Below are positions 42,601 to 45,600 of a stretch of 64,000 nucleotides of DNA, one piece after another. The translations under genes and the position numbers were made by a program. The notes below the pieces were generated by a model, which saw nothing but the letters and a program-made list of their open reading frames with translations, was not told the origin of the DNA and did no database searches. Source of the DNA: Owenia fusiformis (Eukaryota); NCBI GenBank assembly GCA_903813345.2, contig CAIIXF020000001.1, forward strand, positions 7,998,001 to 8,062,000, given 5' to 3'. Each line of letters opens with the position of its first letter. Position 1 is the stretch's first letter.

Positions 42601-45600
42601 TGTCTTGACAAAAATATGCTTTTCTGTTCCAGGGGATACACCTTTCTATGCAGACTCCTTAGTAGGAACATATGGAAAAATTATGGACCATAAAAACTCA
42701 TTAAGTTTTCCAAGTGACATTGAAATGTCTGCAAATGCCAAGCGATTAATTGTCGCTTTTTTATCAGACCGAACCCAGAGACTAGGACAAAATGGAATCG
42801 ATGAAATTAAAGCTCATCCATTCTTTAAAAATGATACTTGGGACTGGGGAAATATAAGACAAAGTAAGTGGCTTCTTTTATCACACTTAGTAGCAGACCA
42901 GAAATGGCTGAATATTTACGTTGAAGGTTTCATATTTAATGCAAATATAGTGTGTTTCTGCAGTATTATATCTAATGTCTGATGATCAGATATTTCTTTG
43001 TAAACGCACTAGTTATTATGGTTAATGAACACATGCTCTTTAATTGTTGTCGTTTTGGCTATAATGGAAACGACCAATACAGACACCATATCACAACCAT
43101 TTGGCCTGTAATATATTTACTATATTTATTCAACAATATGTTGCATTATTTTAGCTGTGCCCCCTGTAGTACCTGAATTAGCAAGTGATGTGGACACAAG
43201 CAATTTTGATGAAATTGAGAAAGATGACAGTACAAATGAAACTTTCCCTGTGCCCAAGGCATTTGCTGGAAATCATCTACCATTCATAGGCTTTACATAT
43301 GCCAGGAATTATAAGTAAGCTTCAGATTACACAATTTTGTGAATGAATAGAAACACTTTTAGGTGTAATGTAATGAAGATTGACATTAGCTTACTTGAAT
43401 ATAGCTTTTATGTAATAAATAGAAGGTAGTGACATTTTTCATGTTTTAACATTTAATGCCTTGTTTACTGACAGACATAAGATAATAAAGTAATTATGAT
43501 TAATAAGAATAGACATATACGTGTATTACTTATGATGAAGTTCATTCAAATTGTGGTTCATGAAATGTCTTATTTCAGTATGATGAATGGTAAACAACAG
43601 GGTGTCGCTCCTACTGGTGGTAGAGATGAGGTAAGAATCTTATCAAGTATTTGTTAAATTGCTAAATTATCAAATTTTCACTTCCAAAAAATGACAATTG
43701 ATTCACGATTCATATTAAGTAATTCATATATGTTAATAGGATTTAGCTTAGCATTTTTGGCTTCGATGTTTTAAACATAAGTTTGTTATCCATACTTATT
43801 ATACAAAAAAGTTCTAATTTTTCTGTGTTTTGTTACTGCCTGCCAGGTTGATGTAAGTGTACCGCTACATACATGTGGCCCCTAACTCTTGTAGTTGCTA
43901 GTAATTAACTGTCACTTGTCATTCATATACTACTGCAGCAGCTTACACTAAAACTGCTAAAACATGGGATTTATTTCACACAACAGAAATTATGACTCAT
44001 CGTAGTGAAATCATGACACATTGTTGTGAAATTATGACTCATAGTAGTGAAATTGTGACACATTGTAGTGAAATTGTGACACACATTGTAGTGAAATTGT
44101 AATTGATCCAGTGCACATTGTAACATTTCCTTGTGATGCATAACAGAAATAATAGAAATCAGCTCAGAGAACATGTATTTGGAAAATAAATCCCACCGAT
44201 CAAAGACCTTTCTTCATTCATTGTCTTTTTCTTTGTATCAAATTCTTTATATATATATTTAGATATAAATAGCCTAATTTCTATAAATGGTTTTTGTTCG
44301 GTGAGATTTGCTTTAGCAATACCCATACCATAATTTTTAACCAATATTTTAGCAAAAATAAAACGTGAGAATTTCCCCAAAAACACTAATGCTCATATAA
44401 TCGTCAGTAAGCAGAATGTATTTCCTTAACTGGTTCAATTAATTTTCCCATGAGCTTAAACCAACATGTGTTCCTATTAATTCTTTGGTCTAAATGCTTG
44501 CTATAGAAGAATGTGCAATCATTGATATAATACATTGTATTTCAATGCACTAATACTGTTAATTCTCTGAACTCAGCCTCTAAATTTAGGAACTTTGTAA
44601 AGCATGTTTTCAAGTTATCTCATAGATCTGTTATTATTAAGTGTTGATATTTTAACCTAATGCACTATTTTGAAGTTTGCTTTAAATGTCCTATCACACA
44701 CACTATAATGTAAATAATAAAAATGATCTGTTTTTTCCCTTTCAGACTGCTGCAGTACCGGTAAGTGCCACATTACCATAGTTTCCTCATGCATCTAACA
44801 GTATCCTATTGAGTATTGATCATATATGCTTTTTCAGTGTTAAGTTCAATCTCCTCATCTCTCATCCTCTCCCCATTATGGGTAGTAAGTTTTGAAGCAT
44901 CTTATCTTTCAAGTATGTAATTTCTTTATACTTTAATAATTCACCAGATTACTTCATTCTTACTCTGCCTACCTTGTTTACTATGTATTCTATGTTTTAC
45001 CATGCTGTGAATATTTCATTGCAGTCAAATGATATTGTCAGAAAAATGAAAGAATTAGAAGAACAAATACGAACAGAACGAATGAAAAAGGATGATTTTG
45101 AACAAAAATATATGTAAGTCTGTATTTGTTGATGCCATTAAAGAACTACTGTGATTAATACTAATTATCAACAATTAGATCTGTTGTCCCTCATTTATTA
45201 GTCTATGCTTCACACCTATCACATGATTTCTTTAATGAATGTCTGTACATGTAATTGGCGTTAAAATTGATAATTACTTAAAAAACTATGAAAAGAATCA
45301 ATATGTTTCAACAATAGACTTTAACAAAATTGATATTGAAATGTATGAATTCTAAAATGACATTGTTCACTTGCAGTTTAAGTATGAAAGAGTTTGACCG
45401 TATATCTGCTGAAGAGACTAATATGCGACAAGGCCTGCGGGACATGGCAATGCTCAAACATGATCTGAAAGAGGTAACATATTAGACACTTATCCAGAAG
45501 ATTTATCGACGTACAGTACCCATAAGTGTTCCGATACCAATCCCCATGAACTTCAGTACTTCCAGACAAATTATTTGATGGTTGATTGAAACTTCACTGT

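Follow-up and report, generated by a model that had tools for sequence, protein, structure and literature searches.

Can six nucleotides decide whether a kinase is open to caspases? The question is raised by the ROCK gene of Owenia fusiformis, which occupies ~27.5 kb to 62 kb of the forward strand of a 64-kb stretch of genomic DNA (contig CAIIXF020000001.1, positions 7,998,001 to 8,062,000; hereafter the window, numbered from its first letter), where its exons are visible as open frames. Actomyosin contraction, the blebbing of apoptotic cells and the extrusion of cells are all driven by ROCK, and Coleman 2001 and Sebbagh 2001 are reportedly the references behind the caspase-3 cleavage of ROCK1. 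An earlier note on this DNA had claimed that a 6-nucleotide (nt) microexon, GTTGAT, which encodes Val-Asp (VD), lies between the exons of the kinase tail and of the coiled coil, and that its inclusion writes the caspase motif DEVD. Our results indicate that GTTGAT is a genuine alternatively included cassette exon of the window's single ROCK gene, present in a minority of the transcripts of one RNA data set and rare or absent in three others. That this exon controls an effector-caspase site in the ROCK hinge, the linker behind the kinase, is a prediction, and for the whole chain we put its probability at roughly 0.4.

RNA data were placed on positions 43100-45200 from three raw RNA runs chosen by their species label (X18, X19 and X20, whose listing leaves out forms seen in fewer than three reads of a run) and from a collection of contigs (X16). 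The splice joint from 43314 to 43579 was seen in 3 reads of X18, 1 of X19 and 12 of X20, and also in one X16 contig, which identifies X16 as spliced RNA. Two X16 contigs of 43579-43630, with depths of 22 and 9.74 (the latter with two other letters), both stop at 43630, where the continuations fork. One contig passes from 43630 into the 15-nt exon that encodes TAAVP and into the first bases of the next exon, and two pass into GT+TGAT+ACTGCTGCAGTACCG, that is, the exon end, GTTGAT and the 15-nt exon. One of these two (record 7) is 51 nt long, has a depth of 6.1 and differs by two letters in 43601-43632, which we read as an allele; the other has an identical continuation and agrees fully with the window. 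The GAG-GTTGAT continuation that had been set beforehand as a check was thus found and, with X16 contigs both containing (two) and lacking (one) GTTGAT, the exon is real and alternative.

The form that joins 43630 to 45024 with the 14 letters ACTGCTGCAGTACC between them occurs in 2, 3 and 5 reads of X18, X19 and X20, respectively, and also in X16 contigs, and no VD form was detected among the listed joints and loose ends of the three runs. The TAAVP exon is present in every read and contig crossing the region, and the site would therefore read DEVD/T (the slash marks the cut). Accordingly, two of the junctions proposed in the earlier note, 43630^43847 and 43852^44746, exist in X16 contigs, while the third, 43852^45025, which would contain VD without TAAVP, found no support in any read or contig of X16 or X18-X20. 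Downstream, the reads and the X16 contig on 45024-45113 continue into the following exon at 45113.

Two other features were observed in the same RNA data. The exon of the hydrophobic motif shows synonymous third-position polymorphisms at 43243 and 43246 (ACT>ACC, Thr; TTC>TTT, Phe) in reads of X18-X20. A 35-nt segment of the following intron (43411-43445) is covered by RNA at a depth of 70-90x in X18-X20, plus three X16 contigs, all of them partial fits with about four differences and with flanks that do not match the window and are rich in GGTGTT; the segment looks like a short one common to abundant or repeated RNA from elsewhere.

A homologue search with the hydrophobic-motif exon (43157-43312) as query gave 110 candidates, of which 99 proteins had E ≤ 0.001; almost all of these are invertebrate ROCKs, and the top match was a 1421-residue NCBI product of O. 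fusiformis (P0001). In tblastn comparisons, P0001 is distributed over the window in 26 pieces, in order and on the forward strand, 14 of which show 100% identity; the remaining pieces (91-98%) are read as overrunning the exon ends. Because the exons of P0001 map to the window in order, we treated the latter as the Owenia ROCK locus. P0001 contains precomputed matches to Pfam families PF00069, PF08912, PF25346, PF00130 and PF00169, matches the solved ROCK1 and ROCK2 kinase domains with E values of ~1e-209 to 1e-212, and displays the organization of the ROCK family, with an N-terminal AGC kinase with hydrophobic motif, a long coiled coil that includes a Rho-binding region, and a C-terminal PH domain interrupted by a C1. 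It was the single Owenia ROCK protein found among the candidates of the homologue search, and it reads GGRDE-TAAVP-SNDIV, with the 15-nt exon kept and the six bases skipped.

All the elements claimed around the microexon (CTAAT, a U-rich tract, two TGC motifs, GTTGAT and GTAAGT) are present at the positions given in Table 1. Exon 43155-43314 ends within a codon, which the first base of exon 43579-43630 fills, and the translation of the latter up to the final ggt ggt aga gat gag bears out the predicted phase-0 end in GGRDE; the numbering D421-E-V-D424 is also correct, because D421 and E422 close this 52-nt exon in P0001. The GTTGAT cassette, of 6 nt and in phase 0, keeps the frame and has its own AG acceptor and GT donor. 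The pattern AG-N6-GTRAGT occurs three times on the forward strand of the window, and only at GTTGAT is it preceded by a pyrimidine-rich sequence (0.67), two TGC and CTAA. Likewise, AGGTTGATGT occurs once in the window, and the second GTTGAT of the intron (44643) has no AG/GT flanks, so that the copy at 43847 is the sole splice-flanked one. The configuration of the microexon exceeds chance expectation. An imperfect tandem array with units of ~20-25 nt (gtgaaat..atgac.ca..) lies at 43960-44110, in the intron that separates the microexon from the TAAVP exon.

Table 1. Exons and splice signals around the hinge of the Owenia ROCK gene (positions in the window).
Feature	Position	Strand	Details
ROCK exon, AGC tail with hydrophobic motif FIGFTY	43155-43314	+	160 nt, ends in phase 2; tblastn with P0001, 100% over 43157-43312
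52-nt ROCK exon, ends GGRDE in phase 0; P4-P3 residues D421 and E422	43579-43630	+	donor GTAAGA
Branch-point-like CTAAT (CUAAY), 27 nt 5' of the AG (-31 to -27)	43814-43818	+	
Pyrimidine-rich tract with two TGC (43837-43839 and 43841-43843)	43819-43844	+	pyrimidine share of 0.67 at -20 to -3
3' splice site AG of the microexon	43845-43846	+	
6-nt cassette microexon GTTGAT, Val-Asp (V423 and D424 on inclusion)	43847-43852	+	X16 contigs; Lingula isoforms
5' splice site GTAAGT of the microexon	43853-43858	+	
15-nt microexon ACTGCTGCAGTACCG, TAAVP	44746-44760	+	in P0001; present in all transcripts seen
Next ROCK exon, SNDIVRKM..., where the coiled coil begins	45025-45113	+	reads and X16 contig (2768 nt) on 45024-45113

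Microexons that depend on eMIC or SRRM3/4 have been described as having the very elements named in the earlier note, a CUAAY branch point and a UGC located between it and the AG. According to the available text of two reports, UGC is found between the branch point and the AG in 79% and 74% of two human classes of SRRM3/4-dependent microexons (10.1101/2024.09.17.613571, 10.1101/2021.02.24.432780), and the exons of the fly eMIC programme are characterized by a CUAAY branch-point consensus and AG-free zones (10.1101/2021.02.24.432780). At GTTGAT we found two TGC at no more than 10 nt from the AG, a CTAAT and an AG-free zone of 33 nt (43812-43844; the preceding AG ends at 43811), unlike the always-included TAAVP exon, which lacks TGC and whose pyrimidine tract is plain and strong. 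GTTGAT therefore resembles the SRRM3/4 neuronal microexons in its 6-nt length, preservation of the frame, UGC, CUAAY, AG-free zone, consensus 5' splice site and deep conservation; however, the AG-free zone is modest beside the 36-75 nt measured at four neighbouring acceptors, and the likeness is one of sequence. It is possible, albeit rather doubtful, that an SRRM/eMIC-type factor drives inclusion, which would hence be restricted to certain cell types.

Conservation in orthologues had also been proposed as a check, and database gene models of the brachiopod Lingula anatina contain ROCK isoforms that differ by exactly VD before TAAVP. Isoforms X1, X3 and X4 (P0103, P0033 and P0100) read ...SLDQ-VD-TAAVPS, and isoform X2 (P0105) reads ...SLDQ-TAAVPS, being two residues shorter. 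Additionally, two truncated models extend into non-coding sequence, P0102 with VRST and a stop following DQ, and P0101 with VSIQLH... following VD; because these run-ons differ from each other and from TAAVP, VD is flanked by introns on both sides in the brachiopod. The Owenia donors, GTA AGA and GTA AGT, would be read as VR and VS, the same first residues as in the Lingula run-ons. Lingula, known here only from database gene models, thus shares with Owenia an alternative two-residue VD between an exon end in D-x and TAAVP, directly after the kinase tail, with the difference that its site reads DQVD instead of DEVD. VD-TAAVPS is identical in both animals and the rest of the linker is beyond alignment; indeed, the linkers after the hydrophobic motif are highly divergent across the ROCK matches. 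A homologue word search with residues 396-460 of P0001 returned only P0001 itself among 10 candidates, and no further annelid linkers were obtained because the linker is too divergent for this type of search. Our literature search found no description or function of the Lingula VD isoforms.

We then set the isoforms of each of 27 species or cluster groups against one another over the 75 residues that follow the hydrophobic motif, and counted 16 distinct small insertion events, merging the scallop genera and the Octopus species and adding Owenia. Inclusion writes a DxxD motif in eight of the 16 (inserted residues in brackets): Owenia DE[VD], Lingula DQ[VD], a JGI cluster with GSDS[ID]GSVPG (P0057/P0348), the starfish Asterias with SSDK[HD]GPGP, the spider Argiope with NSDE[TDK]VKN (P0091/P0092), a scorpion-like cluster with NIDE[PDK]TID, and the gastropods Littorina [QSYDHVD] and Babylonia [LSVDVVD]. 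In two further events, Nematostella DST[VSR]DG and a 7-residue exon of scallops, it is skipping that writes DxxD. The inserts TDK, PDK, HD, HD and ID separate, respectively, the isoform pairs P0091/P0092, P0047/P0353, P0134/P0137, P0088/P0158 and P0057/P0348, and these pairs, from the spider, the scorpion-like cluster, two starfish and the JGI animal, share the same hinge position. In P0347, GSDS is followed by a run-on that begins VSAF..., which is what a donor immediately behind that exon would give. Among the Asp-bearing inserts of three residues or fewer, six of seven follow an exon ending in D-x. Linker indels were absent in nine groups (Lineus, Limulus, Physella, Larinioides, Centruroides, Asterias amurensis, C. 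virginica and two Logan clusters).

As translated from the exon order of the X16 contigs, inclusion of GTTGAT produces a hinge reading D421-E-V-D424-T, with Asp at P1 and P4 and Thr at P1'. The microexon would give P2-P1 of the DxxD site, and the upstream exon P4-P3; the loss of the site on skipping, as claimed, is seen in P0001, whose GGRDE-TAAVP has no P1 Asp. Caspase reporters use DEVD as their sensor; caspase sites call for a small, uncharged P1' residue, and Thr is probably tolerated there. Since the solved ROCK1 and ROCK2 kinase constructs align to residues 6-407 and 13-402 of P0001, D424 lies outside the folded module, ~17 residues or more beyond its end, and G, N, A, P and T abound in the stretch around it. 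Whether ROCK is open to a caspase cut ~20 residues behind the hydrophobic motif would then depend on splicing. The cut would separate a dimeric kinase head of 48.1 kDa, with the capped helix bundle, the kinase and its tail, from a 115-kDa rest that comprises the coiled coil, the region that binds Rho and, as membrane anchor, PH/C1; residues 1-424 compute to ~48.1 kDa, in agreement with the ~48 kDa of the earlier note. The freed head would be expected to be catalytically competent, with its positioning lost.

Both halves of this idea have precedents, in the caspase cut of ROCK1 and in a splice switch of PKC-delta. As far as the text available goes, caspase-3 cuts mammalian ROCK1 at DETD1113, a site reported as specific to ROCK1 (PMC8766376). 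Like the Owenia hinge, this is a DxxD in a ROCK kinase, and its cut parts the kinase from regulatory domains in apoptosis; however, the ROCK1 site is constitutive and precedes the PH domain, so that the kinase keeps its coiled coil, whereas the predicted site of Owenia depends on a microexon, follows the hydrophobic motif by ~20 residues and would release the kinase head on its own. In PKC-delta, the caspase-3 site of the hinge is switched by splicing, as described in a source available in part (PMC8984081). PKC-delta I and VIII resemble the Owenia proposal in that the hinge site of an AGC kinase is spliced into cleavable and resistant isoforms; nevertheless, in PKC-delta an insertion of 31 residues destroys the site and the cleaved fragment is the C-terminal catalytic domain, and in Owenia an insertion of two residues would create it and the fragment would be N-terminal. 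Further caspase sites in kinases and other proteins are MEKK1 DTVD, ICAD DETD/DAVD, PKC-theta DEVD/K and PAK2 SHVD; our literature search retrieved no paper that lists the caspase sites of kinases. DQVD, in turn, is given as a proven site of drICE in DIAP1 and Armadillo in the accessible sections of PMC4355673 and PMC2657781. This is the same tetrapeptide as in the Lingula hinge with VD, and protostome effector caspases use DxVD, although these drICE sites sit in proteins other than ROCK.

We evaluated the frequency of DxxD in the hinge using 77 of the 99 homologues, a set that includes close relatives and in which each protein contains the hydrophobic motif followed by 150 residues or more. 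A DxxD lies no more than 40 residues behind the motif in 27 of the 77, versus 12.2 ± 2.9 in shuffles that preserve composition (0 of 500 reach 27); ExxE, DxxE, ExxD and [ST]xxD were not enriched in this set. In the region before the PH domain, equivalent to that of the ROCK1 site, DxxD was found in 20 of 54 proteins versus 17.2 ± 3.3 (110 of 500 shuffles reach it), and this lack of enrichment gives no evidence of a conserved C-terminal site. At the equivalent of ROCK1 DETD1113 (53250-53440 in the window, P0001 residues ~1120-1135), an acidic stretch whose DxxD content does not exceed what its composition predicts, Owenia reads DSED/M, Lingula reads DMED/GFPE and many arthropods read xDDG/FPE.

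Several of our results weigh against a caspase site. All ten of the listed junction reads of X18-X20 (2, 3 and 5) lack VD, so that inclusion is low, if not proven to be zero, and therefore partial or restricted. The excess of DxxD in the 77 homologues derives partly from related sequences, and seven fly-like proteins share DVID/DMPD. In a second set, with one representative per 50%-identity cluster (97 of the 150 listed passed the filter, many of them MRCK/DMPK-like), DxxD appeared in 15 of 97 proteins versus 11.7 ± 2.9, which is not significant (90 of 500 shuffles reach it); Dx[VILM]D, which speaks for the site, remains enriched in this set, with 11 of 97 versus 2.8 ± 1.6 (0 of 500 shuffles reach it). 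The motifs tested in both sets were, however, picked after viewing the data. Six of the 16 insertion events do not follow the DxxD logic: Acanthaster EE[HD], scallops [QSTID]/[QSTMD], Octopus [Q], S. purpuratus [GGVK], Saccostrea [SHQTKS] and a bivalve-like cluster [SMSVG]. The arachnid inserts carry at P1' a Lys, which is poor for caspase-3. Our literature search retrieved no cleavage data for the hinge site in any animal, and no mapped hinge site in work on Drosophila Rok and caspase cleavage; the portion available of one Drosophila paper gives only a C-terminal Rok fragment of ~30 kDa, with no mapped site (PMC13168378). Nor is activation by release assured, because human ROCK2 is argued, in the part of the source at hand, not to be autoinhibited, its coiled coil serving to position the kinase (PMC4686654); the hinge cut may thus delocalise the kinase rather than simply activate it, and could free an unleashed kinase or merely uncouple it from its site of action. 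Finally, what Owenia and Lingula conserve, VD-TAAVPS, includes the prime side, which caspases do not need, and this points to a binding motif.

This last observation leads to the alternative that survives best, in which the microexon is real and conserved but unrelated to proteolysis, with VD altering a linear motif (VD-TAAVPS, ID-GSVPG or ID-TNSVP) or the charge or length of the hinge and, as a result, a contact with another protein, a site of phosphorylation, or how the kinase dimer and the coiled coil are arranged relative to each other. Most characterized microexons act through such changes, and we regard this alternative as a serious candidate, albeit with clearly less than an even chance. 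It would account for the identity of VD-TAAVPS in two animals whose linkers cannot otherwise be aligned, and is consistent with the presence of AAVP in P0025 and of [VI]D-x-x-x-[VI]P-like strings in P0057, P0060 and P0069, as well as with the lack of DxxD enrichment in the less redundant set. Besides, what recurs strictly is a hydrophobic residue, Asp and a small residue, not always as a DxxD (EEHD, STID, STMD, SSMD and ESVD), and changes in the hinge could matter because the length of the ROCK coiled coil matters within 5 nm, according to the text available (PMC4686654). Conversely, two residues alter the length very little, no partner or modifying enzyme can be named, and the AAVP-type prime side appears in few lineages, with 9 of 257 proteins, four of which are the Lingula isoforms. 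In addition, six of the seven small Asp-bearing inserts place their Asp exactly three residues after an Asp of the upstream exon, which would not be predicted for a generic spacer. The string AVPS, which spans the TAAVP exon and the next residue, is also the tetrapeptide with which HtrA2 binds IAPs; since T-A would still precede it once D424 had been cut, the likeness is probably coincidental.

A second alternative is that the exon is a low-level by-product of splicing, arising because a strong donor close to an AG is used now and then, with no selected function in Owenia, and DEVD a coincidence. None of the ten listed junction reads of X18-X20 carries it, the published gene model omits it, and pseudo-exons with good splice sites exist, as suggested by the three AG-N6-GTRAGT sites of the window. 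We nevertheless deem this very improbable: the same VD occurs in the same place and before the same TAAVP in annotated isoforms of a brachiopod, with parallel inserts in five further lineages, GTTGAT preserves the frame, and its X16 depth (6.1 in one of the two contigs, versus ~32 for the upstream exon) is above trace.

Lastly, an origin of the GTTGAT contigs elsewhere, in a paralogue, in a divergent haplotype with the six bases contiguous to the exon, or in an artefact of short-contig assembly, would fit a record 7 of only 51 nt with two other letters in 43601-43632, and a data set of contigs rather than reads whose record gives no library type, but is scarcely credible, given that the second contig has the same continuation and agrees fully, that a sister contig of the upstream exon with two other letters (depth 9.74) fits an allele, that the other runs frequently show synonymous polymorphisms (43243 and 43246), that the six letters are the sole splice-flanked GTTGAT of the intron, and that only one Owenia ROCK protein was found among the search candidates.

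Outside the ROCK gene, the window contains upstream an open frame of 202 codons (1689-2297, forward strand), apparently a single coding exon, with the small-GTPase motifs GASNVGKSS, DTTG and NKSD and a C-terminal CSIM. On the reverse strand, open frames of 216 and 85 codons (16249-17102) resemble a reverse-transcriptase fragment of a retroelement, with the motif FADDSLLF, and degenerate repeat families, with low-complexity frames of the VRPS/GRTD type, are found at 5.5, 9.5, 12.0 and 55.7 kb.

What is new here is the exon itself, which is absent from the Owenia gene model and whose Lingula counterpart is known only as database isoforms. Our literature search, which did not extend to supplementary exon tables, yielded neither a report of a microexon in ROCK nor any of a hinge caspase site in this kinase or of how Owenia ROCK is spliced, and a single, unrelated paper joining a microexon and a caspase cleavage site. 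Likewise, rok does not appear in the main text, as available, of the fly eMIC paper, whose supplementary tables could list a rok exon (10.1101/2021.02.24.432780).

Going beyond Owenia, the caspase site might be part of an ancient switch, in which a microexon of 6-9 nt supplies the P1 Asp of a hinge DxxD site in lophotrochozoans, and perhaps in arachnids and echinoderms, vertebrates having lost the site. This wider scenario is unlikely in its entirety. The sites involved would be DE-VD, DQ-VD, DS-ID, DK-HD, DE-TD and DE-PD (the hyphen marks the exon end), and through them each cell type would pre-set whether caspases sever the kinase head from its coiled-coil tether; after the loss of the hinge site in vertebrates, ROCK1 would have gained its constitutive C-terminal DETD site.

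Apart from any function, our results indicate that 6-nt exons are recoverable by combining sequence, contigs and isoform comparison. In addition, the pattern across phyla makes the caspase idea testable with simple reagents. If it is true, a two-codon exon that toggles a caspase consensus beside a kinase would be a very compact way to pre-set by splicing the response to caspases, which would cover non-lethal caspase activity too, and would represent a new form of caspase control of ROCK.

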